Positions 15,750 through 59,713 of a DNA stretch of 64,000 nt are shown here, in pieces. The stretch spans positions 124,001 through 188,000 of the forward strand of contig JAYWIR010000075.1 in assembly GCA_036172245.1 (NCBI GenBank). The letters are read 5' to 3'. Source of the DNA: Raillietiella orientalis. Taxonomy: Eukaryota. The position numbers and the translations under genes are program-made. The notes under the pieces are model-generated. The model made no database searches and was not told the DNA's origin. It was given only the letters and a program-made list of their open reading frames with translations. Within the stretch, counting starts at the first letter, position 1; each line of letters begins with the position of its first letter.

Positions 15750-18700
15750 TTCTTATATCGATAGGAGCGACAACGTAGCACCATCGACGCTATTCGACAA
15801 GTCAACTCGCTGCAGCAGTCGAGATAGACTTGTCGGGAAACAACGGCGCACCCGTGCCGCCTGCATCCGTGAAGCAAGACTCCATTGGCGATTCCCAATT
15901 TCGGTTCCCTCTCAGAACAAACCGGACCGCAAACATTCAAAGAGGCGTGGAGCCTCGTTGAATGGAACGACGCAGAAGCGAACGAGGGTCCACGCAACGC
16001 TTACCACAGCAAGTAACGCTGCAGCAGCACGGCTGCAGATGCTTGCGCGCATCTTACACGCTCACTTTTCGCGCGAGCTCATTCCCCCAGAGCCCCCAGT
16101 TGCGGCTTCGTTCTCGACTCTTTTCCGAAGCGAAGAACGCAAAATTCGTGGATCGGACTCTTTGCTTCTTTTACCCCCTCATTCATTGCGCTCTCTTCTT
16201 CGTAACCTCTCACGCAGCACGCTTTGCCTCTCCTTTGAGGGCAGCTTCAGATTTCATTGGACATTGCTGACGGAAGTGGCATTGAGGAATGCCCGTAAAC
16301 AGACTGCTCAGGATATTCACAGAGCGAGGATCTTCGTTGTCGAGTATTTCAGGTTTGCACTTTCCCCTTCGCTGCTCCGGGTTGCTCAGCTTCCAGGAAC
16401 CAGAGAACGTGAGCGTCTCCCGATGTATCAAGGTGCTGACTGCATCCTAGGCGAGCCTTCCGTATTCCTCCTTATCGCATCAGCTACCCACTTGGAAGAC
16501 TCATTTAACACCGACGAATCTCCATTGTCTTTTCTCCAGGGAACTGGCTGATCGTGTGCTTTTGACTAGCTGGATGATAGTAAAAGAGGATGATGCCCCG
16601 TATTCTTGTTTGCAGTTACAGATGGGTGATTGACTTCCTGCTATGGCTCTCAAAGTCTGTCGAGTCCCTCCAACTCCAATTCGCCATCTTCTCTCCGTTA
16701 GAATGACTTTCCTTTTCTTTTCGCATCTCACAAGTTGCGGAGCCCGAGATCTGCGATGTTCTCGCACTCGTTTCCGATCGCTCCTGCCTCGTGAATCGTT
16801 CCATCTGCATTCGCTCACGACAAGGACCTCCCTTCATCTCCGCTACCCAGAGGACCACAGGAACGAGTCACAACTCCTAGTTAAGTGTTAGCAGACGGAC
16901 ATCCAAGACAACGAACGCAAGAGAAAGCGCAACCCACGAAACACGTAGAAGAGGTCCGACAACGGCTTCGCGTTGGGAGGTAGGCAGCCCGGTCGGCTGC
17001 TCGAGCATCCGTGTTTCCTGCACTCCACCCACCACTCGAAGAGCTTTGCTAACGATGAGAGAACCGCTGCTGCAGCGGCTGCTCGAAACGCACGAAACAC
17101 GAAACCAGGATGCGAGGGGATTCTTGCAGAGGCCGCGGTTCAATGCTGGAGGTGAGGACGGTATGAGTGATGAGGATAGCCAGGGAAATGGATGGAATCA
17201 GGCCGCTGCGCGGAGCGTGGGAGGCATGCAATGGGAACCCAGCCCGGCGCGACGTGAAAGACGCTCTTGCAAAATGCCCATTCCAGCCTTCCTGCAGCGC
17301 GGCCGCGAGCGACGGTAGGCTTCGAACCCCGAACCGGGACCTGAGCACCCAAGGGCACTCCAGGAGAAACCCCGTAGCCTCGGTGTATTTGCGATGTCTC
17401 CCAGCGGGCGGCAGTAGGACACCCGACCTTCCTCTCGTCGCCGTCTCCGGCGCCATCACCGCGTTCCTCTATTTTCCAGTACGAAATCCATCACCTAGTT
17501 TCCATCTTCGGTTTCACGTCACCTGGAAAGGGAGAAACGCCCCATCATATGTGCTCGTCCTGCTCGGAGGCCACTCCGAACAAGTGCAGATCTTCGGTTC
17601 GCTTCCCTATTAATACGTCGGGTTGCAGCTTGCCTCCCAGAGCAGCCGCAGGTGTTGCCAGCAGAGGTTCACCACCCAAGTCCTGCCGTTCCGAAGAGCA
17701 CGAGCGATGCATCCTTCCGACGAAAGAGTTGCCCTTCTGCTTCCGCAGGGCAAACTCTTCTCCGTGGCGGCACTTGTCGTCGTGCTCACGGTGAGTGCAA
17801 CCGTTTGCTCACCTGTCCCGTTTCCCTGGGGCCCGCGGCAGTTGACTTCTTCGGCTGCTAGATTCTCACTCCCAGGTGGACTCCCGCGAGCGGCGTCTGC
17901 GGGCGTGACGGACGACTGCTCTGGGGGCACCGCGTGGGTTCGGCCTGGAAGGATACTCTCCTTCACGAAAGGAAAATCAATCCTCTTTCGGTCCTGTTTT
18001 CTCGCGCGTGATGTGGATCATGCAACTCCGGGAAGATGATAGGCTTTCGCATCCTTGATCGACGGTCGGTCTTTCCGGCTTTCCTTCTGTACGCACGTCC
18101 CTGGGGAACTCCTGCAGCGCTCGATGAGACTCCGATGGGTCGCGGTGAAATAAACAGGAACTTTCTTTCAGATCCCGGCTCGTGGGTTCGTACCCTTTTC
18201 CCGAGAAGAAAGCGGACACTTCGAGAATATCTCCAGCATCCCCATCGTGAAGCCCACGCAGAGGTTTTCTGTCGAGCAGCGCTTCCTGATTCAATTCTCC
18301 CAAGGGTCGTGCGATCTGACCCAACCCCAAGGAAGCATAGTCAGCACCGTCACTTTTTCCAGTCCTGGAAATCCGGGCAATTTCCCGGCGAACTCGAGAT
18401 GCGTTCTGGGACTCCAGGTAGCTCGAGTCCAAGAGAGGCCGACCCTACGTCTGTTCCTCAGCCAAACAACATCGTGCAGTCCCCGGAAAACGTCATAGGA
18501 GTGTTTGATGCCCAGTTCGTTCTCGGAAACGGAGGCTCTCTCGTCGTCGAGGATACGCTACGCAGCATAACGTGAGATGATTTTCTGCTGCTAGTCAGCA
18601 TCGCCGTTCATCCTGACAGTTGGAGTGAACGGCCGCCCGCCCGCCACCCTGCTCCCACTCCCGCATTCTCGGACGCCGCTCTTCAAAGACCTGGTTGCGC

Positions 18701-20150
18701 CTCTCTTCGGTCGCAATTCCGGGAGACGTTCGGACCAACTGCATCCGCACCCGACTCGCGACCACTCTCCTCCTCACCCATCCGCGTCCACTATGCGTCA
18801 GCGTTCGCTTCGTCGCGCTGCGCTCGATGCGGACGGGGGGCGGCGTTGCGCGCATCTCGCGAGAAACCCCCCCGCCGAGGAGCCGTCAAACCGACCTGCA
18901 GCATAGCCGTCGCACCCGCCTCACCTTCCCCACCAGAAAAGTATCCGGTTCCTCTCGCTCATCTCGCCGGCCTGTCCCGGAAAGCGCGCGCGCTCCTCGG
19001 GACGCTATCCTCGATGCCTTCGGGAGGCAATTTCTTCTCTGCGGCGGCGCGGGATAGCTCGAAAAAGCCACCTGCCGCCTTCCCGCTTTTCCTCGCGGAA
19101 CCAACAGGCATGGGAGGACGCTCTGCGACCCCTGACCCCAGACAGCTCTGTTCATCGATGCACTCCCCCCCCCCTTCCGCTTTCCAGGATCACCAGGCAG
19201 GCGGATCTCGCTTCGTTTCCCAACCTCCTGCTGTTCCTGCCGGCTAAGATAACGTTCACAGGAGTGGTGGCATCGAGAGGATTTCGTCTCACTTTGACCA
19301 ACGCGAACAACGCATTCCAAGTACCTGCACAGCTGTGGACAACCAGTACAACCACGATGATGGCAACCTCTCCCGCTGTTCAACCTTTCCTCTCTTTGGT
19401 CATCAAGGTACGCAATCCTGGAATCGTGTCGAAGAGTGGTTCTCGAACGCGTCTGCTCGCAGTGTGACTCTTTTCATCCCCACCGGGGATCGTGGATGGC
19501 CTCTTCCGTCCGGTGATGAGCGACCGAATCGCCGGACTCCGCTTTCGTCAGGGGCTCCCCGTTGCGAGCGATTCCTCGATTCGCTCTTCTTGGGAAGGGA
19601 CCTGCGCCCTTGTGCGAGCTGCGCGCTTGCCTTTACTCCGGTTGAGCGGAACCGCCTCCCTGACCGCTTCTCGGAAAAGAGAGACTGCCAAAAGATGCGT
19701 CTCCACGTCTCCGGCGTTTTCTGTGTTTCGCGGGTCCCGCCGCGGCGCAAGCTCGACTTGGTTGACGGAGGGCGCGAAGCGTGCGCGCACGAACGGTCCG
19801 TTCCATCATCTCCCCTCCGACTCTTCCTCGACCGTGCTCGGCACTTCGATTCAAGGGAGTGCGGAAGGCAAAGGCAACCAGGAATGCCAGGAGGCGTCGT
19901 TCGCAGGGGTCAAGGATCCTTCGGAAACGAACAGCAGTTGCTCGAGGTTCGCATCCGTGCCCCGTTTCCACGTGACCGCTGCGAGTCCCGGGTGGCGCCT
20001 GAGCCTTTCGAAGGTTCAGCGAGACTTGCAGGGCTTGCGGGCGGAACACTCTTTTCCCGAAACGAAACGGAAGCTCCTTTTCCGGACGGGTGCCCCGTAG
20101 AGTGCGTGGTCTCCCGGCTGCCGTTTTCCCCGGTCTTTTTTGCACCAGCG
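15750..20150 (-). mobile_element. Heavily decayed Helitron-like Rep/PIF1-helicase coding region
   Basis: Eroded motifs in the order expected for RepHel, across frameshifts: APDE..FGRSSPDGRG (about 19560-19490), GDP..SMNR (about 19200-19140), ELGIKHSYDVFRGLHDVVWLRN (18453-18518, HUH-like), SCMIHIT (about 18020), FLLECPW (about 17360), QPTG (about 16995), EVLVVSEC (Walker-B-like, about 16820), DPRSVNIL, LGIANG (15881-15898). Recognised by eye only. Confidence 0.5.
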
Positions 20151-20479
20151 CTTCCTTCCCTCTGATCTCAGCCGGGATCAGGCCGGGAAGCGGTTCTTCT
20201 CACTGATACCCGAACCGCTCTTGCCACGTGCGGGAATCCAGCATCTGAGATGCTTCGAGCTTGTGGGGACTTCCCGCTACCGCCAATGCTGACTTCCTCT
20301 TCCTTTGCAGCCAGCTCCATGGTGCAGTTTCGTCTATGCTCAATTGAGCAGCCAGAACCTGTTGTCTGGAGAGCTGCTCACTTTCGGAACGAACGGGCAA
20401 AATCTCCCTCCGCAGATGCACACGACCTTTCCCGGCCCGTCCCCTGTCTCGAGTTTCCGCCTCCAATCGCAGCGAGGGA

Positions 20480-21960
20480 AAGCCATTGTCGTGTATTACT
20501 ATAGGAACGACAATCGGGGAGTTGCTGGGAGTTTCTCGACGTCCATGTTTTGCGTTTAGTGGTTCGACGGCGGTGGCGAGGCCTGCGACCGGGGAAAAGC
20601 TCCACCGATTCTGCTGGATTTTGAGGAGTAGCCACGGCGAAATAAATGCTTGCTGACTTGCTTTCTCTCGTTTGACTTCCGTACATTCCGAGCCAGAGGA
20701 ATTAGTGTCGCTCTGTTCCTCACTTCCTAATCCTCTCTACCGATTGCTGCAACTTCACTCGAGCGCCACTTTCTCCACTATCCCAATTGTCCATGCAAAG
20801 TGCAACCATGCTCGTGGTTGGTGTGCAGATCAGCACTTGTTCGAGGATGTGAGCGGCTTCTAGCCATCAACCAATCCCAATCCCCGTACATCCTTCCGAA
20901 ATGACTTCCGCGGGAGTTCGAAACCAGCAAACCCTTTTGTCGAGCATGCTCCTTTCCTGACGTCTTGCTGGATGTCAAGTTCGATTCAAAATACTTTGCC
21001 CGTGGGAGTGTGCAGAGCAGTGGTCAGCCAACCCGATTTGGCTTAGTCCTACTAGAGGATAGATGCCGAATTTCAAACTGCAGCAAACGGTGCGTTTTCT
21101 TTTTCCATCCCGATGGACGCTCCACTCTATGGCGACTCTGTGAGGTCTCCGCGTTCCTTTCCCACGTGATCGATCGCGTTCCTGCGTGGCGTGGACGTCT
21201 TGCTCCTTTAGCGAGAGGTAGCGAGACGTCCGGAGTGTGACCCTTTCACACTGAACTCATGCCTGTTTCCTCCTTCCGCAGGTCTGGTGGCATTTCTGCG
21301 GCTACTGCACTTCTCCCCTCTTAGGAGGTTCATCCTCCTCCTCCGATGGAGTTCGTCAGGAGGAAAGGGATGCGGGTTCCTACCCTGGGATTGCACAGGT
21401 GGGCGCTTCCTTCCCCTTGAAACGATCCCTCTAGGACTCCCGATTTGGTCCTTGCTTGCAGACTCCCTCACCGACTTTTCAAGATGGTCTCCAGGTCCGA
21501 CATGCGGCGTGGTGGTTTTTTGTGGACTACGCGAAACCAATACAGAAGTGCTGCCACTGCGCGCGCGCGTGCAGTGGAAGCACTCGAGGCATTTCGCCTC
21601 GATTGCTTCCAGTAGCATCACTCATGGTTCTGATCTCATTTTAGGGGAAAGGGGAGAGGGAATGTCACATCTAAGCAGTGGACATTCCCTATTGTTTTGC
21701 TCGAAATGTAACTGCAAGACAAAGCGGAGACTCTTCCGCAGCTTCGGATGCCGATCTCTCTTTTCATCAGTCCCGATGGAAAGTCCATAGCTGGAAGCAC
21801 GCGCTCTTCATCTTCCACTGCTTGGCTCTTCTTATTGCGGTGTTCGCGATGAAGAGAGCAATGCGGTTCCTGACCTCAGGGTTGTATCTGGGCGCCTTTT
21901 CATCCCCATTGAACAATCCGGCATAGATTTCTCGCTCTTGGTCCTTTCCTGCAGGCATGT
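20480..21960 (-). mobile_element. Decayed BEL/Pao LTR-retrotransposon pol (integrase region)
   Basis: Minus-strand motifs in order: FIAN..QW, KCLECFHC, GSHFGRMY (cf. APHFGGxYE), WRKWRSSE (cf. FWxRWxxEYL), VELFPGR (cf. IxELxPGxDG). Confidence 0.45.
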
Positions 21961-22029
21961 CACCGCCTTCGGCGCCTTCCGCTGTTGGTCGAGCGTTAGG
22001 CAGGCGAGGACGGGGAACAATTCCCTAAG

Positions 22030-22625
22030 ATAGGGGGTACTCCGAGCGGGGACCGCCATATGAATCCAGGAAGGACTCGGAGTCCGTTCCTCTCACGCCT
22101 GAGGCGAGATCCGAAAATTGAGATCGCTTCCACCCTGGTTGTCTCCGAAGGGAAGCCTGCGAAGGGAATCTCCTTCCTTATTCCCTCCTGAGGGGTCCTC
22201 TCCATTTTTTCCTTTTCGAAGGGAACCCGGAAAGGATCCGCTAGTAGAAATTTCTTCTCCGGAGAGAATCCGCAAGGGAACCGCTCCTGTTTACTCCTCT
22301 GAAGAGAACCCCGAAGGGACGCTTCCCGATTCCTCAGAGGAACGCTCCCGAAGGGAGCGGCTTGCTTATCTGCACTCTCTGGAGAGGTGGCGATACATCT
22401 ACTTCATCAGTATGACTCTGTGGGTCCCCCCGAAATGAGGGTCCTCTCCTTCACAACCGGAGGGGAGCTCCCACGCCGTGATTCCTGGAAGGACCCGGAG
22501 GTCGACTCCTATTTGTCCTGGCCCTCAAAGGGAACATCCAGTTTCAACAGCTACCATTGTCGCATCCGGATGAATGGAGGCCAATCAGTGTCATCTTGCG
22601 AGAGGAACTCGAACCCACGACGTAC
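22030..22625. repeat. Dispersed repeat with internal TCCGAAGGGAACCC-like units, copy B
   Basis: Homologous to copies A and C. Shares GGCCAATCAGTGTCATCTTGCG..ACTCGAA..CCACGA with 54468-54512. Confidence 0.75.
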
Positions 22626-22861
22626 TGCGTCGATTCAGTTCGGAGTATTGGAACGCACGATGCATGGTGTCACGGGGTGACACCACCGTAACCACACAGC
22701 CTCCGACGCGGGCCGTGGGTTTCCCGGCTCCTCAGCCAGCGCAAGTCTCGCCTGATGCATTTCTTATCCAGTGCTTCGTTTCTGATCCACTCAGGATGCC
22801 TCCGTGGTAGAACATGAAGAGACTTTCCTCACCAGCTTCCGCTCTTTCGAATCCTGGCTCG

Positions 22862-23830
22862 TTTTCCACCCGGTTCTGCCGAGGCATTTACTATTAAACA
22901 AAATAATAATAAAAGTCCACTAAAACATTCAATTGTTGTAAAACACTTGGTTTCACCACGTTCTCGGGAGTTGCTTTGACCGGCATGCAGAACCGGCGAG
23001 GACCGTTTCCTCGGCAACGGGAAAGGGAAAACCGGGAAAAAAGGGAAACAAACAAAAAGAGAAAAACGGGAGAAAAAGTTTTACCGGAAAGTAGGAGGGG
23101 GAGGAGAAGGGTCCGGGAATGGGATCACACTTCGCTAAGAGACGTCCTCAGCACCCTGTTCAGGATGTTGGGAAGTTCTATCCTTATCTTGCCAAGTGGG
23201 GACGGCCATCTCGAGGCGGTCTTCAAGACGATTGTTGCGCAATGCATTGCGTCTCTTCCATTCATGCCTCTTCTTCTGGCCTTCCCCGCCACGATCCCGC
23301 AAAGACAGCAGAGTGCTGCACGGTACGCGGCTGGAGGCTGCGCGGCACGCGCGCGCGAAGAGGCGTCCGCAAGTCTCCCTGCGACCTCCAACCGGGACTC
23401 CTAGGGTCTTCGAGAAGCGATCCCAAAGGGGACGGAGGGCGGCGCAGTCTAGCAGAAGGCCTCCTTTTCGCCACATCTGTCGCACTGAGCGTCCATGCTC
23501 CTCCGTATTTAATGATGAAGGCGTGCTTTGCACAGGATTCCCCCATGCACCACCAGCAACGCCAAATTTTGTCACTTGAGAGGGAGGATGCCGATCACAG
23601 CTCAACCTTAGGCAGGCGGACACGTGCCACGAGCCTCCTCTTCCTCCATGCACCCTGCAATGCCCGTCTCGGAAGTTCAGAGTGCCCTCGTACGACTCAT
23701 TGGTGCGAAGCATCCCGACCTCCCGGCGGCAATGGAAGTGCCGCGTAGAATCGCCAGGAGTTGATCCCGAATTCTCGGCATCACTCTCCTCGCGTGTTGC
23801 TCCGTTGCTTGCTTGAAGCATCCTCTATCG
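22862..23830 (-). mobile_element. 5'-truncated, decayed L1/Tx1-type LINE 3' end
   Basis: LLLDCAALRPLWDRFSKTLGVP and ILNRVLR on the minus strand, T-rich UTR, terminal motif at 22867-22892. Confidence 0.75.
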
Positions 23831-24369
23831 GTGGACTACGAAGACCTCTCTTTACGATCCGCACCTCTTGGAGCGCAAGCCCTAAGAATGGCAGTCCCTT
23901 ATATTAGGCATCTCCCGTTTCCTCGGTAACACCGTAGTTTCCTCGTTTTGCAGGTGAGACATCCTTGCATCCTTTGGTCACATGGAAACAGCCGCATCTC
24001 AAGGAAGTTATCTTTCTTTTGTAGACTGCTTTGTGTGCGTAATCACTAGCTGTGTCCTTCGACGGATCCGTTGTCCCTCCAGAGATAAGCAAGCGAGGCA
24101 TCACCAGAGTCAGTTCCTCTTCTTAGAGTTCCCATCTATAAGAGACTACCTTCATCTTGATGGTGTACAGCGGCTCTTGTTGGCTAAGCCACGTATTTAT
24201 CAACTGACCGGTCTTCGGCAGTGAAGATGACATCAATACCCCTGAATGGCTAAGCAGTCTCCAGCACGCGCTGTGGCACCCTGGGGATTTTGTGATTTCT
24301 AGGACTTTCTAGGAGCATCCAAGTGATGAATGGAATGTTCACTGAGCTTCCATCATCAGGCGATAAGGC

Positions 24370-31060: not shown

Positions 31061-33141
31061 TAGCAATCGGATTAACTGATGGGCGGATAGATGTATCTCA
31101 TCTGAATTAGACTTTGGTGATTGACTACTTCGTTTTAGTTACCCAGAAAGGTCGTTGCATCCGCAGATATGTCCCACTTCTCTACAAAATTTGAAGAGTA
31201 GGAAAAAAGAGTGTCTTGGACATAAATTAGCTTTCATGATGATAAACTGGGATATGTGATTCAATATTTTGCTTTCTGTTTTTTAAAGATTCATCTTTGC
31301 AGTGGAACAAAAAATCTGCTTCTATGCTGATGGAGTGAACAATAAATTTGAGATTTCTTGTTTGCAGTCATGTTTCAGCGTGAATTATTTTTTTCGGCAA
31401 GTTCTTGAACAAAGACTTATTATTTTTTTTAAATGTTATTCTCGATGTTTATTAACAAGCACATGGTGCATGTTCTGCATTGTGAGATGTCTAAGAAAAG
31501 TCTGGTATCTTTTGGAAAAGAACAAACCAGTGAATTCAACATGTAGACCTAAACCCAAAAGTTGATTCAACGAAGCTTATTCAACCCTAGTTTGCAGCCC
31601 TATTTTAAAGGTGAACTTTATCTAAGCAATTTCTGAAAACTAGATACACTATAACGTGCAATTCCAAATTCACATCAGTTGCATTTATAGAAATGCACTT
31701 CATCCACGTAGCTGCTTGAGCTGTCGCCTGATGCTTTTCAAGAACTAGAACTTTCTGAGCAAATTTAGAATGGGACTGTCGTGAATTTGCTCCTTGACAA
31801 CTTGTTTAGGAAGATAACTAACTCTTTATCATAGTACCATTTATAAAAACAGCGAGCACAAAAACCAATAAACGAATATTTTCCTTCCGAATTTTTTTTT
31901 TTTTGTGAGACGACCGTTTTAGTGTCTCTAAAGCTTCTTTAGTTAAATCCTTCATCTGTGTGAAGATATTTTTAAAACTTAGAATATTAGGAATAAGCAT
32001 GACCATTGACAAAAATATGTAGGATAAAGCATGCTTTAAAAAATTATATATACGTGCTTAGATAGTTAGGAACGAGCATTTCACGTATACCAACAGCTCT
32101 TAAAACATTAGAAGGAAATACACGCAAACGTAATGTTGGAAAAAAAAAAGTGGTTTCAGACATGAAACGCCTCTACGCATTAGCGAACTAGGTATTATTT
32201 TCTAATTCTGTATCTCCATAATATCAACATAACACTGGAAAAAATTGTTTATCCTGGAATGCGTTCTGCCATGTTTTCCCAACGTTTTCCCAGTATTCCC
32301 AATTGAGCGATTTTCTAGTCGTAGAATTTACTTGGTGATGAGTGGAAGTGCGTAAGGTAATGATGTACGGAAAGCACTATAGGCTGTTTTGAGGTATATC
32401 GTGCAAAATGTAGAGTTACTCTTTCCCAAGGATATTAAAAAGGAATCAAGTAATTCTTAAATTTTTTTTTTTTAAAGCGTTTTGTGTTTAGAATGCATAT
32501 GCGTGAATTAATAGGTATTGATCAGCTGATCGTTCTTGATGTTCAGGATTTATCCGGAATGTGTTTTTGGCATGTGAATCATAATTTGATTCGTAATTGC
32601 TCAATATTTATTCCATTAGCTTGGTGAATTTATTGAAAATCGTTTATTGAAAGCTGTAGAGATTATTTGTAAGCTTTAATTTTTCTAAAGACTGTGATAT
32701 GTAAGGTTGTTGTTTTGGCTTGTATTTTCAGAATGCATGTATTGAATAATAAAGAAATGGATTCCTGTTGCAGTTTTCGGTTTCCATAAATAAATGCGGC
32801 GGATTTGCAAATATTATCGCGATATTTTGCCCACCATAAATTCTGGAGTGAATAAAACAGTACAATATATAAATCAGTATGTGTAAAAAATATTGTTTTG
32901 CCAATACGCATATGGAAGTAACTTGAGCTAATAAATGTTTCATCTTTCATAGTTGATTTTTAAAAAAAAAAAAAAAAATTGTTAGCAAAGAGTTAAAGTT
33001 TATCACTGAATCAGTGATTATCATCAAGATAATTACCGTAATTGTTGTCCTTCTCAAATATATCGATATATCTTTTTGTTGATACAATCATTTAGAAACT
33101 TCTGATTCAGATATGGCTTAGGATACAATGTAAAGTAATAA

Positions 33142-34816
33142 ATGGCTGGCAGAAAATACCGAAGAGATCAAACAGAAGTTAGTTGCTGTTTGAAATATCT
33201 CATTTTTGGATTCAACGTGATATTTTGGGTGAGTTCATTAATCAAGTTACAAACTGTAATATATCCTTCATGAAATATACAACTTGAGTTATAAAAAACA
33301 AGTAATTACTTGACTGTATTTCACAGCTTCTTGGGTTAGGGATCCTAGCTATAGGTGTTTGGGCATGGACTGAGAAAGATACTTTCAATAATCTGAGCCG
33401 CCTAACAAATATTTATTTAGATCCAGCTTTTATCTTCATCATTGCAGGTATATTTTCCTATAACTTTTTGTTGGTACGTTTCTCATTGCAACATATAGGA
33501 AGCATAACTTTCATCATTGGTTTTACTGGATGTGTGGGAGCTCTACGTGAAAATACTTGTTTGTTGGCATTGGTAAGACTGATGTTTAGATGTAAAATGA
33601 AATATTAATGTCATTCCAGTATTCCATAATTTTGGCAATTTTATTACTGCTAGAAATGACTGCAGGAATCTTGGGATTTATTTTCAAGGATTGGGTATAA
33701 TCTCTCACTTATTACAAATGTTTATGAGTCCAAAATTATCTCTGTTGTAATTTCTTGTCTCAAAATTTCATTCTTGTCTTTTGTGGAAGTGTCATTTCAT
33801 GCTGACCATGTAACATATACTTTTCTGTTTGGAAAATGGAGCGTTTTTGAACATGTGTAGAATCTGTTGCTTTTAGATTAAATTGAAGGCAACTGGAGGA
33901 TTTCAAACTTTTATTGTACATTATCGAGATGATCCTGATCAACAGAATCTTATTGACTGGATACAGGAGGATTGGGTAAAGTAACTTCTTATTGGTCATG
34001 AAGTATATTTCTTAAATAGCTGCAGTGTTGTGGTATTGAAGGTCCTAAAGACTGGGATAAAAATATTTATTTTAATTGCTCTTCAGTTGAAGTGGGAAGT
34101 CGTGAAGCATGTGGTGTGCCTTTTTCCTGTTGTAGGCCCAAAAAAAACGTAATGTTTCCAATATAGCTGATAAATTCAATCTCATGTATTTTAGGAGATC
34201 ATCAAAAATAAGCAATGTGGCTATGATGTGCGCAAGCCTGATTATGTGAGTATGAGTACCTAGTGAAGAGGGTAGCTTTGGCTTGCAAACACTGCTGCTT
34301 TTACTAACTTTTCTTTTCTGGCACTTAGCTTGGGGATCGAAGTGTCCTTTTGTTTGAAAAGGGTTGTCTAAGGGCAGGCGAGCAGTGGGTAGAATCCAAT
34401 TTAGTGCCAGTGGTGGCAGGCCTGGTGGGGATAGCTGTCCTTCAGGTATTTTTTCTTGTATTGAAGGTGATGGTGCTTGGCACTCTGCATCTTTGGTGGG
34501 TCGGAAATGACAAATATAAATGTTTTTACGTGATCATCTTGCAGAAATATGATGCAGCAAAAATAATTTTTGATAAAGGCTGCCTGCAAGCTGGTGAAGA
34601 ATGGCTTGAACAGAATTTACTCCTGGTGGGTGGGGTAGTTATATTTGTGGCCTTTCTACAGGTGAGTCGATTGAGAGCAGAGTGTCATGCCATCAGTTAC
34701 ATTATTTGCCAAGTTTGCATTATATTATCTAATCCGTTACACAGATTCTCGGCATCTGTTTTGCACAAAATCTCCGAGCAGACATATTTGCCCAGAAAGC
34801 CAAATGGCACTGCTAA
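33142..34816 (+). CDS. Tsp26A: TspanC8 tetraspanin (Tsp26A / TSPAN5/17-like), 274 aa, spliced
   Basis: Exons 33142-33228, 33327-33447, 33499-33572, 33620-33694, 33877-33975, 34020-34148, 34195-34245, [34329-34445 or 34545-34661], 34745-34816. All introns are GT-AG and in phase. Protein [29 protein letters not shown]...[13 protein letters not shown]...[12 protein letters not shown]...[59 protein letters not shown], with 8 Cys in the large loop. The symbol is the closest recognised Drosophila gene; orthology was not tested. Confidence 0.95.
34329..34445 (+). CDS. Tetraspanin alternative exon 8a (117 nt)
   Basis: TTACTAAC branch point and TTAG acceptor, CAG|GTATTT donor. Encodes [39 protein letters not shown]. 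Confidence 0.88.
34468..34695 (+). promoter_or_regulatory. Complementary intronic elements flanking exon 8b (candidate selector/docking RNA duplex)
   Basis: 34468-34488 TGATGGTGCTTGGCACTCTGC pairs with 34677-34695 GCAGAGTGTCATGCCATCA: 19 bp (3 G-U) with one 2-nt bulge, extendable by 4 bp past a bulged A. Confidence 0.7.
34545..34661 (+). CDS. Tetraspanin alternative exon 8b (117 nt)
   Basis: TTGCAG acceptor, CAG|GTGAGT donor. Encodes [39 protein letters not shown], 17/39 identical to 8a, same length and phase. Confidence 0.9.
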
Positions 34817-34943
34817 ATGGTATACAACATTAGACATCCAGTATGATATGTGCTTATGTATGCAGATGTCTCATTATGAAATGGAATCTCACTTGATTGT
34901 TTAAATACTCAATTAAGTCATATTTTGATTATGAAAATAAGTA

Positions 34944-34949
34944 AATAAA
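34944..34949 (+). terminator. Candidate polyadenylation signal of the tetraspanin
   Basis: First AATAAA, about 130 nt after the stop codon, in AT-rich sequence. Confidence 0.4.
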
Positions 34950-35846
34950 AGTATTGCTTCTTTATAAAGCATGCTGCAAAATACAGTTTGCTTTCTGAAT
35001 TGCATCCGTAAATGAAATAACACATACCTTAATTTGCTTTCATTAAATATGGGTAACACTTGATCATATGTCTTTCTGTTAAGTTGTTAGGCCAATATGT
35101 TGACAATATAGTGAGATTAATAACCTTGTGCAAAGTTTATCCAACAAATTCCCCGCACATACTTTCTCCTGCAAATCGACTCATTTGTAAAGTCGTGGAT
35201 GCGAATTTCAACAGATCAGCTGATGATGCACATCAAACATGTATTTGTCGTCCGTATTTTTTGATATTGCCTGCCTGTATATAGATTTGTTTTTTAATAC
35301 GTAGAGTATTAAATAGAACTTGCTTTAATGAAAGAATGCACATTACGTTTTGGAACCTACGATACGAAACCCGTTAAAGTTTCCGTGCTGCACTTTTGAA
35401 TAGCAAATAGAACGACTTTACTTTGATTTGACATTTAAGTGTTTATTGTGATCAGTGATCAAAATTCCAAAATTCGTTGGCAGCAATATTTATTAGGAAG
35501 ATCACATTTAAGAGATGTCGGAGCAGTATTTAGGATAGGGCAGATACTACTTGAAATTTTTGGTTCTCCCCGCAGAGGCGTTGGAAGTAAGAAAATGCCA
35601 CCGGGTGGATTAAGAAAGCTATAAAACGACAATGAGATTACATACTGTCGAGGCTATCCCTTGGAAGTCGCTCTTTAAATATTTTTTTTCTTAATAGTAG
35701 AAACTATCCAAAAACTAATTACAGAATAACTATCATTCCGATCACGTATATTGGAAGCATAAAAAACTTTCTCAGTTATCTGCGATCCAATTTCACATTC
35801 AAGGAAGTTGATTTGCAGCATGCCATCGTATGCCTCGGCATCTACT

Positions 35847-49559: not shown

Positions 49560-51500
49560 AATCTAGATGGACTATATTACGAATGGGCGCAGTCAAACCA
49601 GTTGACTTTCGAGCATGAACTCGCAAGTTTAGGATGAATGTAAAGAACCGAGAGATGTCATAGTCATCGTGGGGGACTTTAATGCCGATCTAGAAAGGCA
49701 CCAGCATTGAGACGTTTAAGGAGATAATGGTTTCGGGATGAAGAACTCGATCTCATCCGGACGGTTGCCACACACACTCCGATAAACTACATCCTCTACC
49801 CAGAGAACGTCAGCAATCGTTTTCAGAGACTTAGGGAATTGCCCACCTCTCTCTCGGACCACCTTTTGCCAAGGTTTCGGGTGAAAGCCAATAATCCGAA
49901 GAAGGTACACTTAGTAGTCAAGGCGGCTCTCATCTGCATGTCCTCCTGGTGCAAGAGATGCCCGAAATACCGGAACATCATGAAGACCATCCTGGACACA
50001 ACCGCCAACAGCAGCTTCCAAGAGTGGGATCGACTCAAAAATGCTGTCCATCTCTTCTATGATATGTTGCTCGGAGACAGGGAGCTAAAACAGCGAGCGT
50101 ACTGGGAAATGAGCGAACAGCATCTCCCCTACTCTGTTTACTGGCAGCAGTACCAGAGACGATACCTGGACCACAGCGTCAAGAAGAACGTCGACATGCT
50201 GGGAAAGATGACATTTTCCAGCTTCCACGAACATTTATCTCACCCACTACCTACATCGCGACTATCGGGCCTGGGAACAAGTGCTGTAGTCGTTTCACTA
50301 CTATGACACCGAATTATTCCGCAGGAAACCTCTCGACGAGGAGGGTAGAAGAGACGGGTCTTCCTATGTGTCGTCAAACGACTCGACTCTCTTCAACCAC
50401 AAGCCTTGGACCAAGGATTCACGGATCAGGAGATCAGGACGGCTTTCCTGGAGCTCAGCAAGCATCTGGCGGCGGGTACTGATAGCGCGCGTCCGTTACC
50501 CACCACCAGCTGCACCTGCCAGCCAACCCGCGTCTGTTCCTCCAGTTGATGACCCGAGCGCAAGGAAGAAGGAGGAAGGCTGCCTGACCTCTTCCTATAG
50601 GGATAGGATGAGACTTCTCCCAGGTGATGTGATTTGAAGCCAGCCACCCATCTCCGTCCTCAATTCCGATACCAAGTGGGTAGCCACCGGCTAAAAAGAT
50701 GCGTCGGATCGGTGATTTCTCCCAGGCAACCGCGTGCTATCCCTGAAAGACGTAATCGCGGGAGCTTTAAAGGTCTCCTAAATCCTCCTAGAATACAACC
50801 TCATAGGAAATGAACTGATTCTGGATCTCAACGGGCTTAATTAGGCCATCGAGTCCGCTGTCCACACTATTGTTGAAAAAATGGGCTACCTGAGAAAAAA
50901 TAGGCTTCCACTGGAAACTCCTGGCATGCGCGGCGGTCACTCTGGAAGGAGCGCGATTCCACCTTGCCATCGACGGGGAGGGCGATCTCCGCTAACCGAT
51001 GGATGGACAGAGGAATTCGCTAAGGAGATGCTTTATGCTCTATACTCTTCGTCCTCCACACGGACGCGACAGCATTCTGTGTTACCAAAAAGAGCAACAA
51101 AAGAGTCTCAGTCTGGATAGGGAGATCATCACCAACCTGGCTCATGATCCACTATTTGTCATGGCTGACTAGAAAGATCAGAAGGCGCTTTTATCGATCG
51201 CGGAAACCGTGGAATACGGATTCAAGATTAACGCGGCCAGGTCCAAGCTTCTCGCTGCCATCGGAATTTCTGGTACCGCTATCCTGCAGTCTCACGGATT
51301 CGGGATCGTGGATGACCCACAGTACTTGAATGTATCCACATAGGAGATGAAAGGGAGTAACCAGCATCCCAACGGAAGGAGACGATAAAGATCAGGCACG
51401 AAGCGATGCAGTGCAGAGGGGAAAACTTCTCCGGTGCGTCTTCGCTACCGACTTCTTGTTGGCGTGGTCTTCTAGCACATTCCAGAGAAATGGTCAAGCA
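49560..51500 (+). mobile_element. Decayed L1/Tx1-type LINE ORF2 (endonuclease to RT)
   Basis: VIVGDFNA (49663-49686), LSDH (about 49855), FQEWDRLK, PISVLNSDTK (50647-50676). Many stops and frameshifts. Confidence 0.7.
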
Positions 51501-52244
51501 TCTGGAAGACTCCTGAAGAGCACTAAGGTGTACAGGAGGGGAAGTCCCGAGAGAAACTGAAGCTTTTGCTTGTCTGGAGATGAGGCAGGGGCAAAAGCGT
51601 GTGGGAAATCGCCACCGAGCTCCAGGATTTGCGGCACGTCAATGCCTGGGACGAATGACCGTGCGTGTTGCACCGAACCTACGCCAGACGGCTCAACGGA
51701 ACCGACTGCCTGATGTCAGCTCTGTCCGGGACACGAGGGCGGAAGATCGACCCGATCTGGCCGAAGAAACAAAACCTCGTCAAAAGCGTTAATATGAAGA
51801 ATGCACTGAAGAGCAAGGTGCTCTGGATCAAGGGGCCGGGAGTGGTTATTCCCGCTTTTCGTAAGCGTTCCATGGGCCACCGAGAGATGGCTCCAGAGGA
51901 GACCACAACTGACCATCAACGATCGAGATCTATTCCCCAGCAGTGGGAATGTCTCCCCGAGGAGCGAGTGTTCCAGCACGAACTCCAGATGCAAGGGTGG
52001 GCGACCTGCAAGTTTCGCGAACTCTGGCAGGAGCAAAGCTCGGAGGAAACTAAGGTGAACCTCCGAGCTCTGGCAGTGCAGTTCACATTAAAGACCACTG
52101 CGCACGAAACAGTCGATGTGGACACAGCTCAGACAACGTGACCGTTCTATAGATAGACGACCTGGTTCCAGTGACCCAAGACAACCTCCTGACGTTCTAT
52201 CACAGAGGGGCCCTGTGCGACTCTCGACTGCCCCACGCTGGATG

Positions 52245-53520
52245 GTTTATCACTAGGTTACGCCGGGAAGTTTATTATAAAAAATGAATGCACATTTGTA
52301 GGGCCATCGGCGCTTCATTGTCCGAAAATGCTCGGAACCTGCCGAGTAACCGGCATGCAGGACGTCGAGGTTCACCTCGGCAGCGGAGGGGGAGGGGGCA
52401 AACAAAAATGAAAATAAAACAAATATATATATACAAAAAATTGAGAGGGTTAGGGAAGGGGTCACCGGAATCCGAGGGGCGTCCTTTGCATCCTTTTCAG
52501 GATGCCGGCCAGTTTCCTCTCAGTACGTCCCAGGTGAGGCCATCTTGCTGCCGTCCTCATGAAGCGCAGGGCAAAGCAGATGTTCAGCAGCGTTCCTGTA
52601 GTAACGTCCTCTTCTCGCGTAGCTCTAAGACACCACAACCCCACATAGGCAGCAGCAAAGAGCTGCTGGGTATCCGGCAAGCGAAAGAGCATCGCTCACG
52701 AGGAGGCGCTTTATCACGCCCCTGGGATTTGTCCGTCGGTGCACCAAAGGACGTTGCGTAACGAAACCACAGGGACCAGAGGGCAACACAGACTACGAGC
52801 AGGTGAGGAAGGGATTCCCATTCCCCGCACCTGCAACAGTTGGTGTCCACAGTCCCCCAGTGAGAGCGGCGGGCATTGCACGGGAAACCCCAGTGCAATA
52901 GTAGAAGTGCCGACTCCTTCCACTTCAGAAGAAGGACCCAATTATTTTTGAACGCTGGGGGCCACTCGAGGCCTTCCTGTAGAATTCCCAGCAGCTCACC
53001 TTAGTGAAACAGTCTTTTCGTTTAGGAAATTGAAGTTGCAGCCTTCTTGAGCTGGCTCGTGGTTCAACCACCTAATTCCTTCGCTCTTCCACCGATCTCA
53101 CATCGGACCTCCCATTTGGCCAGCTGATCACTGTCCAAGTGCTCCCTGAGAGAGGACAGTGCTGCGGCTTGGGAGGTTCTTTGAGACCACTTACACGTGA
53201 TGGGCTGCACAATGACGTCCTTCAGCGAGTTGTAAAACGAGTGCAACAGCCGCTGGCGCATCTCCGGGCTCGCTTCGTTGTTTTGGGCTTATGTGCGAAC
53301 GCTTTCCTGCAACCAGGCATTACCGTTCGCGGGCCGGCAGAAGATCCAGTTGTTGGTCCTGGTCAGCTTGGCCACTTGCCGGAGCTTCAGTCCGCAGAGC
53401 GACACATTGATATGGAGGAAGGTTCCATGAGAACAACCTTTGAGCACTGTCCCCAGTCAATCTTGAGTCCTCGAAGAAATCCTGGTGCAGAGTTCCAGCG
53501 AACTCTAATCTCAAAAACGC
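52245..53520 (-). mobile_element. 5'-truncated, decayed L1/Tx1-type LINE 3' end
   Basis: LAKWEV, HWGFPCNARRSHWGTVDTNCCRCGEWESLPHLLVVC, GILKRMQR, UTR and terminal motif at 52251-52276. Confidence 0.85.
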
Positions 53521-53929
53521 TACTCTCAGAGGTTTAATAGAATTACTGCAGCCAGGTCAGAAGTCAGCAAAACGGTTATGCTGCTGGGGAGCAATTCAAT
53601 CGGACTTACATGAAACAAAAGTGCTGTCGGTCCAGATGGGAGTCATTCCTCAAGCCAGTGACATCCTTATGGTGGCGTGAAAATGTGAACTAGGCTAAGA
53701 ACGTAATATTTGAAGGAATATCGACAAACCATGCACGCACAGGATAGTTGATCAGCACAATCCGCACAATCCGTCTTTACATGCGATTAATACAACTACC
53801 TCGACGGCTACGCACCTCAGTGTAGTCACCATAGTTGCACTCTTCACCACCTCTGTCCGTCATCATATTTTTTCGAAGTTCCCCTCATGAAGTCGTCAAC
53901 CCTTCTTTCAATGATCCACCTTCAAGCTA

Positions 53930-54515
53930 GGAGTAACCCCGGGTGGGGACCATCCTATGATTCCATGTAGGGCTCCGCAGAAAGGACTCCGTTCCCACAT
54001 ACTTGGGTGGGAACCCGGAAGGGAACATCTTCCTTATTCTTTCCGAATGGACCCCTAGAGCGTAGGTACCCTTCGTTTCTTTTCTGAAGGGAACCAGGAA
54101 ACCCTGGAATTTCTTCTCCGAAGGGAACCCGAAAGGGAGCCGTTCCTTGTTACTCCTCTAAAGAGAACCCCGAAGGGACGCTTCCAAATTTTCTCCGAAA
54201 GGTCTCTCCCGAAGAAGGCAGCACGCTTCTCGCACTCTGGAGAGGTATTAATCCACCAGCTCCGTGGTACACATGGAATGGGTCCCCCACGAAGGGAGAC
54301 GACTCCATTTGCACAACCGGGGCAATCCAAAATGAACCGGACTACTTGATTCCTGGAAAGACCCCGAAGGGTCAACTTCCAATGCCACCCACTCGTCGGG
54401 TGCATCCGGTTTCCAGCTTCCACCAGTACTGCACTCCCCGGCGTGACCAGTGCTGCACTCGAACATGGGCCAACCAGCGTCGTCTTGCGGGAAGGACTCG
54501 AAATCCACGATGCAT
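53930..54515. repeat. Dispersed repeat with internal TCCGAAGGGAACCC-like units, copy C
   Basis: About five 35-42 nt units. Homologous to copies A and B. Confidence 0.75.
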
Positions 54516-54534
54516 CCATATCTCGGGCGTCGAT

Positions 54535-56715
54535 CCTTTATTTTCACTCGGTCACGCTGTAGCGTTTATTGTAAAAAAAATATTTACAGAAAAAAACAGT
54601 CATATACAAGATGAAAAATGTCTTTCTTCGTAGTGACTTCACATCACCACTACTAAGGGAGATGCCTCGGAGGCGCTGCTTCTCGTTAGCAGCTCCCCTG
54701 CACTCTCCGCACTGCCCCAAAACATTCCCTCCTCATAAGCAATGAGGTCCGCACAGGAGGAGTGAGATAAGAAGTAGACAAAAACACACAAAAAAGCACA
54801 AAATTTCAGCTTCAAAAAATGCTAGGGGGGAAGGGGAGGGAGCACATATTTCTTCCTGGCATCCTCAGCATCCTCTGGAAGATGTTGGCAACTTTTTCCT
54901 TTTGTTAGCAGAGATGCGGCCATCTTATCTCTTTCCTCATCAAGCAGCAGACGATTGAGATGGCCTCATCATTCGGCTGACCCTTTCGGAGCGGCTTCTC
55001 GCCGCTGCGATCTCATGAAGGCAGCACGGAGCTGCAAAGGAAGATGGAGGCGACATCCAGTGGCGCGCGAAGGAGCACCGCAAAACCTCTCTGCCGTTGA
55101 CCATCAGGAGTAGGAGGACCACAGCGAAGCGTTCCCAGGCGCTCAGGAGGGCAACAACACAATCCAACAACAAGTGCAAGAAGGTTCCTCTTTCCCTGAA
55201 CCTGGCACAGTGTGGGACGGCACTCACTCCTGTCCAGGGGGATTCGTGCGTTGCATGGGATTGCCCAGTGCAACAACTGCGATGCCGAGCCCTGCCACTT
55301 CAGGGGAGGCGTGGAGCTGTCCACAAACACTGAAGATATTTCTGCATCTTCAGGAGGAATGTCTAGGAGTTCTATCCAGCGACGAATTCCTTTAAGGAGG
55401 GCGGAGGGAGTGCATACGTCAGCCAGTTCACATGCCGTCCAGCGTTCCAGCTGCTTCTTTTTCCCCACGATCTCGCAGGATGCTACCCATCTCGCAAGAC
55501 ATCGATATTTCCACTTTGTTATTTGATGTCTAGCGTGGCCTCAAGTGGAGTGTTCCACACCCAAGTGATCTTCCTTGGGAAGTCCATGATTTCCCGCAAC
55601 GGGCAGCGAGCGTAGTTCGAGGATCTCAGACATCGCGACGGGTCCGAGTTCGTGCCGTTTCTTTTCGCCCACATCTGACCTGTTTCCTGTTTTCAGGCAC
55701 TACAGTTGACGAAGTGGCAGAAACTCATGTGTTCTGGATCAAGGCAGTCATTTGCTGGAGTTGGTACCCACATCATGGCAACTGTCGGTGGCCATTCAGG
55801 AGGAACATACCGAGTTTCCTCGGCTCCGGTTGCTCTCTTGGCCAAGAGTCTGGCTTGGACACCCAATAAGTGGTCCAAAACTTCGTCGACAGGACTGATC
55901 TACACTGGAGCTGCCGCTTCATTCTCTCCAACATCAGGATGCGAGTCCAGCGTTCCGACGCTGAGCGCGCACTAGTCCTTCAAGAGGACCCGAGACCTCT
56001 GCGTTCCCCAGAATACTTTTCGCAAAAGTCCTCAGTCCACTTTTTCACATATCCAGGAGGGGGAAAACAAAAAGCAGGGGTCGGAGGAAGGGAGTCGGAA
56101 CAAGTCCCACTGGACAGCCAGTTCCGGCAAGAGAAACTTGCTATTCAGGAACGGGCTGAGCGCCGATTTTTGGAGGCAACCGGACCAGGTTTCTGCTGCA
56201 CAGAAGTCTTCTAACGGGAATCCCAGATACTTAACGCGCCTGACTTGTGGAGATCCCCAAACGGATACAGTCTGGTTGCACTGCCCAGGCCGCATCAACG
56301 GGAAGCACAGTCGACTTCGTTCTGTTTCTACGCTCCTCGGCGGATCAGCTCGAGGAATTCCTCTAGCGATTCTGCCAAAACTGACATGGGTAACAGGAGC
56401 AGAAGATCGTCGGCATAGGCCAACACGACAGGCTTGCTGGGGCACGGACTGGGAAGGGCAGCAAGAGTTGTCCCATATTCTCTCAGAAGGAGAACTGAAC
56501 GCTGAAGAACAACGGACTGTCTTCTTGCCGAATACCGCGCAGCATCGGTACGCCGCACACGTGTCAGCCGCTGAAAAAAATGTTGATCATCACGTCGAAC
56601 CAGCAGGAGCGCAGGTAGGCCAGGAGGACATCCAGGAATCCCATGCGTTCCAAAAGTTCCCAAAGGAGCTCCTGGTCGACACAGTCGAGTGCTTCTTGCT
56701 TGACCAGCACCTGTG
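54535..56715 (-). mobile_element. Decayed L1/Tx1-type LINE (RT to 3' end)
   Basis: ALDCVDQELLWELLERMG, VLAYADDLLL (about 56400-56425), VKYLGFPL, WAIPCNAR, HLLLDC, terminal motif at 54545-54570. Confidence 0.85.
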
Positions 56716-56739
56716 CCCTTGCGTGGGCAGGCGTGGCAA

Positions 56740-59713
56740 GTTACCGTCCGAGCTGTACGACCATCGCCCGATCGTGCAAGAGATTCATCCGCGAGACACG
56801 GCCCACCCTTCGTCAGCGTGGCGTCTCCCAGGGGACTGGCTGAAGCTCCCGGACGCGGTGGAACATCTCCGCGCGTTCATATGGAGCATCAGAATGCGGA
56901 CACTTCAGGACTGGGACCGCTTTAAGAGGTCGGTCCAGGAGTTCTGCGGCCAGTTCCCTCTGCACCGCCTACCTGCGGGATTTGTGGACGGGGTCCGTAA
57001 CAAAAGGTCTTATCCACAGGCCCGACGTTACGCAAGGACCCCCGACACCCGCAGGCTAGCGGAATACAAAGCGGAAGCCGAGAGGCAAGCCTGGCAGTCC
57101 GGATCGGTCAGTTTGTTGGAGGATCAGGGCCGGGAGCACTCGGTACCCGCTCAGATCCGCGGCCTGCTGCGGCGTTTTTATCCCTCCCTGTACGCAAGAA
57201 CGCCTCCCGAGCGGGATGTCTCACGACTCCTGCTCCCGGAAGGCGTTCCAGCGATCAGAGAGGAGGAGAAAAAGTCCTCAACGAGCCTTTCACGATGGGC
57301 GAGATCATCTCGGCCATCGGAAAGCTCAAGAGGCGCAAGGCTCCAGGGGAGGACGGCCTGCCCGCAGAGTTTTATCAAACTTTGCGGCAGATCTTACCCC
57401 CCTGGTACATCAACTCACCTTGCTGACACGCGAGACAGGCAGATACGTTCCCGCCTCGTTTCGCTCGGCAAAGGTGCGGCTCCTCCCAAAAGGAGATCTT
57501 AGGAGCATGAACAACTGGCGTCCCATCACAATGCGGACGCCAAGTTGATAGCTAAGGTTTGGGCAGAGCGCCTGGGAAGGGTTGCAAACGCCTTCGTCAG
57601 CCCGGAACACACAAAGCATTCGACTGCATCGACCAGAAACTCCTGTTGGAGCTTCTGGAACGCTTGGGCTTCCCAGCCTCATGATTGGCCTATCTGCGCT
57701 CCAGCTGGCGCGACGCGCTCATCAATGTTTCTTTCAGCGGGTAGACCGTTCACGGCGTGCCGGTGCGGCGTGAGATATGGCAAGGAGACAGCCTGAGCCC
57801 CTTGCTCTTCAGCACTTACTTCGAGTTGGTACTGAGAGCGTACAGGTAGACTCTGGCGCACCTGCCTCACGACTACGCCTGTACGCCGGCGGTTTCAGCG
57901 TACGCGGACGACCTTCTGCTGCTGCTCCCTATGTCCATCCCGGCTTCGGCAGTCGAGGAGTTCTTCGACCTGCTGCATCGGGGAACCGGACTTACGGTGA
58001 ACAGGGCGAAGTCGTCCGTGATGCCAGTTGGTGCGGCGTGGGCAGGGCAGCAGGACTGGGTCTGTTTGGGGATCCCCACGGTGAGGTACTTCAAGTACCT
58101 TGGTGTGCCGTTGGGGGACTACTCCCCTGCGGAAGTGTAGTCCCGCTGCTTCCAGAAAGTAGAGACGGCGATCGTCCCGTTCCGAGGCGGCAGGTTTTTC
58201 CTGCCTGAACGGGCCGCGGTTTGGAACACGTTCGCGGCTTCTCTCCTCCGTTTCCTGATTTTTGTTTGCCCCCCCACAGAGAGGATTAAAAAGCGGACGA
58301 AGGACCTCCTTCGTATTGCCCTTTGGGGCAACGGGAGGGCCCGAGTCCGCTTGAAGGACTTGTGCGCTCCGCGTCGGGACGGTGGTCTCGGCCTCCTGAC
58401 ATTGGAGCGGCTGGAGCTTCAGCTCCAGTTCCGGATGTTGGCCGTCGTGCCGGAGTTCTGGTGCACCTGCTGGTGCGTCCCTGCACGTCTCCTCGTCAAG
58501 AAAGCCACCGGGAAGACGGGACTCACGTCCTTTCTTTCATTCCATCGCTCCCGCATCAACCGATGTGGGCTCCAGCTGCGGAAGGTGGCTGCCTTGGTTC
58601 GGAAAAATCAAGGATGGATCACCTGTCGCCCCGCGAACGGTAGTGCCTGGTTACAGGACACCGTTCGCACGTGGGCACAGTGCGGCATGCAACGCGCCCA
58701 ACAGGAACGAAGGTTCCTGTTTGGGTGCTACAGAAGTTGCACGCTCCGAGAGATCCTGGAGGATCCGAAGAAGCGAGCGTGGTCAGGAAGAACCCCCCTC
58801 GCTGCTGCGCTGGCCTCCCTAGTGGAACATCAGGACAGCGATGTTGTGGCGAAGTGGGAGGTTACGATAAAAATCTCCGGGAAGGAGAACATAGCAGAGT
58901 GGAAGACGGGTCAGCTGATTGACGCTGCCACCCCGAGTACGCCTCCCCATGGACTTCTGCGCTGGGGCGCGCTGCTCGATGTTGCCATTGAACGTCTGAA
59001 GTAGCCCCCGGTGCTCATGAATACCTCCACCCTTCCCTTAAAATGGCAAGAGTAGGCTCTACTGTTGCAGCACTGGGGACTCCCCTGCAACGCCCGCCGA
59101 CAGCACTGGACCTGGGGAGCGGTGGACCCCAATTGCGTTAGGTGTGGGGAACGGGAGTCCCTCCCCCACCTGCTTGTGGATTGTGTTGCCCTTCGGCCCC
59201 TTTGGTTCCTCTTTGCCGCGGCCATCGAAATCCCCTGCGGCAACTCCAGGGACGCTTTGAAAGCCCTCTTCGTTGCCGACGCCCTTCGGCCTGCGGCCTG
59301 GTTAGCAGCCCTGTGCTGCCTTCGCGGGATCGTCGTCGCTTGGAGCAAGGCTACGGGAGGACCTCGCGATAAGGGTGCCATCCAGCACGCCGCCGAATTT
59401 TTGAGGAGGGCATCGCAGTGGCCCCACCTGGATCCTGGAATTCAGAAAAAGCTTGTCGGCATCCTGCGAAGGATGCAACGGCCCCAGCAGCAACAGTGAT
59501 CCCTTCCCTCACCCTCCCAGCTTTTCTTTTCTATTTGTTTAGTTTTTTTGTTTATCTCCCTTCCTTCTGCTGCTGTGGTGGACCGTACCGGTCTGCGAAC
59601 TGGTGACCCGGTAGGCTGTGTTTCTTCGTGAGTGACTGGAGCACTGGTCCAGCCATAGCACGTCTTTGTTAAAGTTTGTTTGAAATAAACGCCCCGAAGA
59701 AACCGGGTGAAAA
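56740..59713 (+). mobile_element. Most complete L1/Tx1-type LINE copy (end of endonuclease, RT, zinc finger, 3' UTR), frameshifted
   Basis: YDHRPI, WDRFK, KAPGEDGLPAEFY, LLPKGDLRSMNNWRPIT, QGDSLSPLLF, YADD (57901), VNRAKS, FKYLGVPL, DGGLGL, CVRCGERESLPHLLVDC, AATAAA at 59684 followed by the hairpin. Confidence 0.92.

Follow-up and report, generated by a model that had tools for sequence, protein, structure and literature searches.

Pairing between introns is an established way of governing the choice among tandem alternative exons, known for Dscam, 14-3-3zeta, Mhc, MRP and srp. The locus analysed here, in a 64,000-nucleotide window of the Raillietiella orientalis genome (the whole stretch of DNA under study), raises the question of whether a tetraspanin gene with two adjacent exons of equal length, 8a and 8b, chooses between them by such a pairing. 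The preliminary description of this DNA had pointed to a stretch of the intron between the two exons that is complementary to a stretch of the intron after 8b, and had proposed that the duplex hides 8b, brings the 8a donor close to the exon 9 acceptor and so makes a minimal two-exon switch.

Arthropod proteins aligned to the window by tblastn, together with checks of GT and AG borders, place the coding region of a TspanC8-type tetraspanin at 33142..34816 on the plus strand. The model has ten exon positions and nine GT-AG introns of 98, 51, 47, 182, 44, 46, 83, 99 and 83 nt. Exon 6 used as a protein query returned 443 tetraspanin homologues with PF00335, none of them identical; those bearing names (tetraspanin-5(-like), tetraspanin-17(-like), 26A) came from chelicerates, crustaceans and insects. 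Exon 6 itself scores 28.5 bits against PF00335, under the cut-off of 32.1, because it is only 43 amino acids long. The predicted protein has four transmembrane helices, and eight cysteines, the CCG motif included, can be read in its large extracellular loop across exons 6, 7 and 8 (CCG, NCS, ACG, SCC, QCG, GC); eight loop cysteines are the defining feature of TspanC8 tetraspanins. Judged by these sequence features, the gene is a TspanC8 tetraspanin, the orthologue of Tsp26A or "tetraspanin-5-like". No Rfam family matched 33000-35200, a 153-codon minus-strand frame over the locus had no Pfam match, and a scan of prokaryote genome contigs found no relative.

Constitutive exon 7 (34195..34245, plus strand, as are all features below) ends in the consensus donor GUGAGU and is followed by intron 7 (34246..34328, 83 nt). 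Exon 8a (34329..34445, 117 nt, 39 codons, A-type) has the non-consensus donor GUAUUU, and exon 8b (34545..34661, 117 nt, B-type) has the consensus donor GUGAGU. Between them lies a middle intron of 99 nt (34446..34544). After 8b, an 83-nt downstream intron (34662..34744), with a branch-like CTAAT motif at 34729-34733, leads to exon 9, whose coding part (34745..34816) is nearly invariant across arthropods. The two exons are homologous, their peptides being alignable end to end, and either one supplies the final stretch of the large loop together with transmembrane helix 4. Every splice product is open: 8a or 8b alone gives 274 residues each, both together 313 and neither 235. Nonsense-mediated decay therefore cannot police the choice between 8a and 8b, and at 99 nt the middle intron exceeds the length at which simple steric exclusion could act. 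The 8a frame also stays open across the middle intron, through 8b and beyond (34329-34904, 191 codons), so retention of that intron would likewise keep the frame; as a protein query this read-through frame found no match.

The surroundings of the gene differ in composition. Two blocks of the window, 16000-24000 and 50000-60000, have 52-60% GC against 30-38% around them, and both of their strands carry many long overlapping frames. Pfam gave no match for four of the longest, and the blocks are possibly mobile elements in decay. One 12-nt word of exon 9 recurs at 23771, amid GC-rich sequence that is otherwise unrelated; this was set aside as chance.

The exon pair itself is well documented in relatives. 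In each of 13 cDNA-like metagenome contigs, exon 7 is separated from exon 9 by a single exon 114-120 nt long (A-type in two, B-type in eight and ambiguous in three, with no contig having both). Among the 120 homologues listed, some are A-type and others B-type; in several arthropods both isoforms are annotated for the same gene, and isoform pairs of a single gene differ precisely in exon 8 (P0095 and P0107, for example). The view of 8a and 8b as homologous tandem exons of 117 nt, belonging to a pair used singly in relatives, is thus borne out by the contigs and by annotated isoforms alike. At least 11 database protein models, some named as isoforms, have A followed by B in tandem (P0007, P0018, P0039, P0045, P0055, P0065, P0069, P0079, P0110, P0112 and P0114). 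Such proteins would gain a fifth membrane helix, and the models may be mispredictions or may reflect real double inclusion.

Eight genomic metagenome loci (L021-L025, L031, L033 and L049) show the order A, B, exon 9 with clean AG/GT borders throughout. Exon B is 117 nt long in all eight and exon A in seven, with 147 nt in L049, and the middle intron ranges from 99 to 1072 nt across loci. Counting the locus studied here (donor at 34446), the A-exon donor is non-consensus in nine of nine loci and the exon 7 donor consensus in nine of nine; the B-exon donor is consensus-like in three of nine. Both exon types, always A before B, occur in chelicerates, crustaceans and insects, and a tandem order common to such distant arthropods implies that the pair is older than the arthropod radiation. 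Seven further loci (L013, L020, L029, L034, L042, L045 and L053) have a single exon 8 between exons 7 and 9; these are paralogues, or else they belong to lineages that lack the duplication.

The complementarity described for the R. orientalis introns is present as reported: the bases at 34468-34488 and 34677-34695 are those quoted in the preliminary description. The selector-like arm 1 (S2; 34468..34493) begins 22 nt past the 8a donor, with 51 nt remaining between its end and 8b, and the docking-like arm 2 (D; 34673..34695) begins 11 nt past the 8b donor, with 49 nt remaining before exon 9. ViennaRNA pairs 34468-34474 with 34689-34695 (7 bp) and, across a small internal loop, 34478-34488 with 34677-34687 (11 bp); beyond a bulged A at 34489, it pairs 34490-34493 with 34673-34676 (4 bp). 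The earlier count of 23 bp agrees with this, since 22 bp are computed and an optional pair between G34475 and U34688 brings the total to 23; G-U pairs account for three or four of these. A gapless inverted-repeat search independently recovered the core (34475-34488 with 34677-34690). The helix is present in the minimum-energy folds of both a 299-nt and a 625-nt context, and the thermodynamic ensemble has 21.9 expected pairs, so that the predicted helix is formed almost always. Before arm 2 is transcribed, arm 1 is predicted to fold locally into a small hairpin, with an unpaired probability of 0.29; when arm 1 has been spliced away, arm 2 is predicted to be largely free (0.47).

Composition and uniqueness set the arms apart. 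They have 50% and 52% GC, compared with 38-42% for the three introns around the exon pair and 25-31% for the remaining six, which upholds the remark that the arms are GC-richer than the gene's introns. The related remark that the introns of the cluster are about twice the minimal length holds against four introns of the gene, but intron 1, at 98 nt, and intron 4, at 182 nt, equal or exceed them in length. Arm 2 is unique in the window, matching itself alone within three mismatches, and the arms are no dispersed repeat.

The helix closes a 179-nt loop that contains the branch region, acceptor, exon and donor of 8b, and it leaves outside the 8a donor and the branch region and acceptor of exon 9. 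With the helix formed, the distance between the 8a donor and the acceptor of exon 9 would fall from 299 nt to about 71 nt. Only 11 nt separate the 8b donor from the helix, and the predicted fold adds a few weak pairs that reach this donor. As a model, then, the geometry is compatible with the earlier proposal of a duplex that hides 8b and brings the 8a donor to the exon 9 acceptor.

The most serious alternative is that the complementarity arose by chance, or as a recent neutral inverted repeat, and has no effect on splicing. We consider this improbable but worth weighing at length. Three coarse statistics do not separate the helix from background: folding of the whole region is unremarkable against shuffles (z = -0.9), with RNAduplex applied to whole introns, 96 of 2000 shuffles do as well, and 60 of 3186 window-wide controls, mostly in the GC-rich blocks, match it by a lenient score of base-pair alignment. 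A compact-duplex statistic was adopted in their place. By this measure the helix energy, -32.6 kcal/mol, is reached by none of 152 geometry-matched real-sequence pairs (mean -14.7, sd 3.5) drawn from both strands of the AT-rich window part at 26000-50000. It is reached by none of 200 dinucleotide shuffles in an exhaustive 28x28-nt scan (z = -5.9), and by none of 200 and one of 150 shuffles in the filtered pipeline, which makes one of 550 over all compact-duplex shuffle sets; one of 100 shuffles equals the helix in base-pair alignment score. Of the 28 segment pairs tested over the stretch that runs from intron 6 to exon 9, the helix is the sole strong outlier. The comparison with shuffles suggested earlier thus gives a divided answer, in that the compact-duplex statistic separates the helix and the whole fold and whole-intron RNAduplex do not, and the claim of an intron-intron duplex far stronger than chance stands on the real-sequence controls and the pooled shuffles.

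Further observations weigh against coincidence. Only three intron pairs were relevant a priori, and the arms are GC-rich islands within AT-rich introns. Inside its paired segments, all departures of the helix from a perfect inverted repeat are G-U pairs on the plus strand, and for this reason the sense RNA is more stable than the antisense (-24.2 kcal/mol), by 8.4 kcal/mol; this bias points to selection on RNA rather than to a DNA-level repeat. The arms also sit exactly where experimentally proven elements sit (PMC4691838). What speaks for chance, besides the single shuffle of 150 that equals the helix energy and the unremarkable whole fold, is that a majority of the distant orthologues have no comparable duplex and that the introns of these orthologues cannot be aligned.

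The orthologues repay a closer look on this point. The introns of the eight distant loci could not be aligned (between L021 and L031 there are no alignable blocks), and the compact-duplex test was also run on the three intron pairs of each locus. For the middle and downstream introns the p values were 0.35, 0.055, 0.25, 0.66, 0.01, 0.045, 0.17 and 0.13; the values 0.01 and 0.045 belong to two near-identical loci, and the Fisher combination was made over seven independent lineages. Complementarity between these two introns, unrelated in sequence to the helix here, is modestly enriched (Fisher p = 0.02), and the other two intron pairs show no enrichment in the same loci (Fisher p = 0.94 and 0.87, the latter for intron 7 with the downstream intron). 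Singly, five of the eight loci are null for the middle and downstream introns (p = 0.13-0.66), and no orthologous locus comes near -32 kcal/mol relative to its own null. These results are a weak hint that the same pairing layout recurs in other lineages.

It is tempting to speculate further, and we do so with low confidence, that a pair of exons more than 500 million years old is kept exclusive by lineage-specific, fast-evolving helices, always between the middle and downstream introns, with the architecture kept and the sequence turned over, and with an unusually strong and compact example here. On that reading exclusivity would come neither from nonsense-mediated decay, as all products are in frame, nor from steric hindrance, as the middle intron is 99-1072 nt long.

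We lean, with a little better than even confidence, towards the reading that the helix loops out 8b, favours 8a and blocks joint inclusion of 8a and 8b. In this model the two arms would pair as a sense-strand RNA helix in the TspanC8 pre-mRNA, and the looped-out branch region, acceptor, exon and donor of 8b would be suppressed. The effective intron between 8a and exon 9 would shrink from 299 to some 71 nt, a size comparable with the other short introns of the gene, so that the weak 8a donor (GUAUUU) would be joined to exon 9 and not to 8b. The likely roles of the helix would be to favour the 8a isoform and to prevent double inclusion, whose in-frame product nonsense-mediated decay would be unable to remove. 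Where exon 7 is spliced straight to 8b, arm 1 would be lost with the lariat, and splicing of 8b to exon 9 could go on unhindered. We infer that the helix forms in vivo and alters exon choice, and it is probably functional in the splicing of this gene.

Whether such an element amounts to a switch depends on a competing pairing for the other outcome. Between intron 7 and the middle intron, the best upstream pairing reaches -15.1 kcal/mol, a value equalled by 119 of 200 and 92 of 150 shuffles, which lends no support to the earlier suggestion of a two-state switch. We read the element instead as a putative one-sided device that favours 8a and guards against inclusion of 8a together with 8b, and not as a demonstrated two-state switch. 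A helix predicted to form with near certainty would suppress 8b constantly, yet the 8b frame is intact and conserved, so some modulation must exist.

Intron 7 contains a second candidate partner for the docking stretch. This partner, S1 (34272..34299), is similar in sequence to arm 1 and pairs with 34675-34700 at -26.5 kcal/mol in a weaker, interrupted helix, the second-strongest of the 28 segment pairs tested. Its energy is reached by just two of 152 real-sequence controls and by four of 200, five of 200 and four of 150 shuffles. If D (34673-34700) paired with either S2 or S1, the choice of partner could set the isoform, an arrangement that agrees with the duplication model of PMC6071210. We give this little credence. 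Pairing of S1 with D would loop out both 8a and 8b and select neither, joining exon 7 to exon 9 for a predicted 235-aa protein without transmembrane helix 4. The S1 helix is heavily interrupted, its ensemble probability is negligible (0.0004 expected pairs), and the orthologues give no enrichment for intron 7 with the downstream intron. The significance of the S1 pairing is doubtful. Two other pairings in the region are not significant against shuffles: S1 with exon 8a (27 of 150), and an outer helix of the minimum-energy fold, between exon 7 at 34208-34230 and 34698-34723 (38 of 150).

The direction of the effect could also be the reverse, with the helix promoting 8b by presenting it in a compact loop or by blocking a silencer in the arms. 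The direction in which a loop acts cannot be read from sequence alone, and in PMC6071210 the loops of the Dscam exon 6 model are described as "exposing" exons. Against this, the sole mutationally tested case of the same geometry suppresses the exon in the loop and activates the proximal one (PMC4691838); here, moreover, the predicted fold leaves the 8b donor, at a distance of 11 nt from the helix, partly base-paired. We regard promotion of 8b as quite improbable.

Reverse-complementary sequences in both introns flanking an exon are a geometry that favours exon circularisation, and this duplex does draw the donor and acceptor of 8b together; a main role in back-splicing that would turn 8b into a circular RNA of 117 nt, or some other function as double-stranded RNA (in editing, say, or as a source of small RNAs), is nevertheless very improbable, given a helix of just 22-23 bp, a small single-exon circle, and an exon that is a conserved coding member of an ancient pair for which linear splicing control is the simpler account.

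The preferred reading, a helix that loops out 8b and favours 8a, could have consequences for the protein. TspanC8 tetraspanins control the trafficking of the protease ADAM10 and hence Notch signalling. Because the exon swap alters the last part of the large loop and the fourth membrane helix, partner choice could change with it. The exon pair is already visible in public annotations and the pairing helix is newly described for this gene; in the open-access papers searched we found none tying a TspanC8 or Tsp26A gene to structure-guided splicing. The locus is also very small, with three introns of 83-99 nt and two exons of 117 nt, and no splice outcome breaks its reading frame, so a minigene built on it would be a clean system in which to ask how a helix enforces the choice of one exon out of two without decay pathways.

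Among known systems, the closest is srp of Drosophila. According to Yue et al. 2016 (PMC4691838), pairing of the middle intron with the intron before exon 5 (stem II) is required for inclusion of exon 4.1, and disruptive and compensatory mutations prove that both the use of this proximal exon and the fidelity of splicing, double inclusion being prevented, depend on it. Stem I, a pairing further upstream, activates exon 4.2, and loss of both stems leads to skipping and double inclusion (PMC4691838). The R. orientalis duplex is placed like the downstream docking site and selector of srp stem II and of 14-3-3zeta (PMC4691838, PMC6071210). As in srp, the cluster has two exons, the arms lie in the middle and downstream introns, and the distal exon is in the loop. 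A minimal two-exon arrangement is not in itself new, because srp is already a two-exon cluster with the same pairing. The two genes differ in other respects. In srp, stem I serves the distal exon, and there is no significant counterpart here, intron 7 and the middle intron showing no significant pairing that would make the control bidirectional. The srp duplication is Drosophila-specific and skipping shifts the frame, whereas here the pair is pan-arthropod and all outcomes are in frame. The srp elements are conserved and mutationally proven; those described here are known from their sequence.

The other systems are more elaborate. As in 14-3-3zeta and Mhc, the docking site lies downstream of the cluster, its complement lies in an internal intron, and what is between them is looped out; those genes have at least three exons and several selectors per docking site, and here there is one convincing selector. 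Dscam exon 6 likewise relies on intron-intron pairing in a tandem-duplicated array to govern exon choice. There the docking site precedes the cluster, each of 48 selectors stands in front of its own exon, and the global repressor hrp36 belongs to the mechanism (Graveley 2005, as described in PMC6071210); we found none of these features here. Human ATE1 offers another two-exon case, its mutually exclusive exons 7a and 7b being under the control of intronic complementary elements (PMC7797038). For ATE1 it is reported that a central element has two partners to choose from, one on its upstream and one on its downstream side, and that the whole cluster is bridged by an ultra-long-range helix, whereas in the tetraspanin gene the downstream partner alone is significant. 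PMC6071210 also reports that, in general, outer introns tend to pair with inner ones. The locus shares with these genes tandem exons of equal length, whose single use is read from relatives, along with the placement of the arms and a stable helix. By analogy it fits the intron-pairing class of splicing control, in its downstream-docking form.
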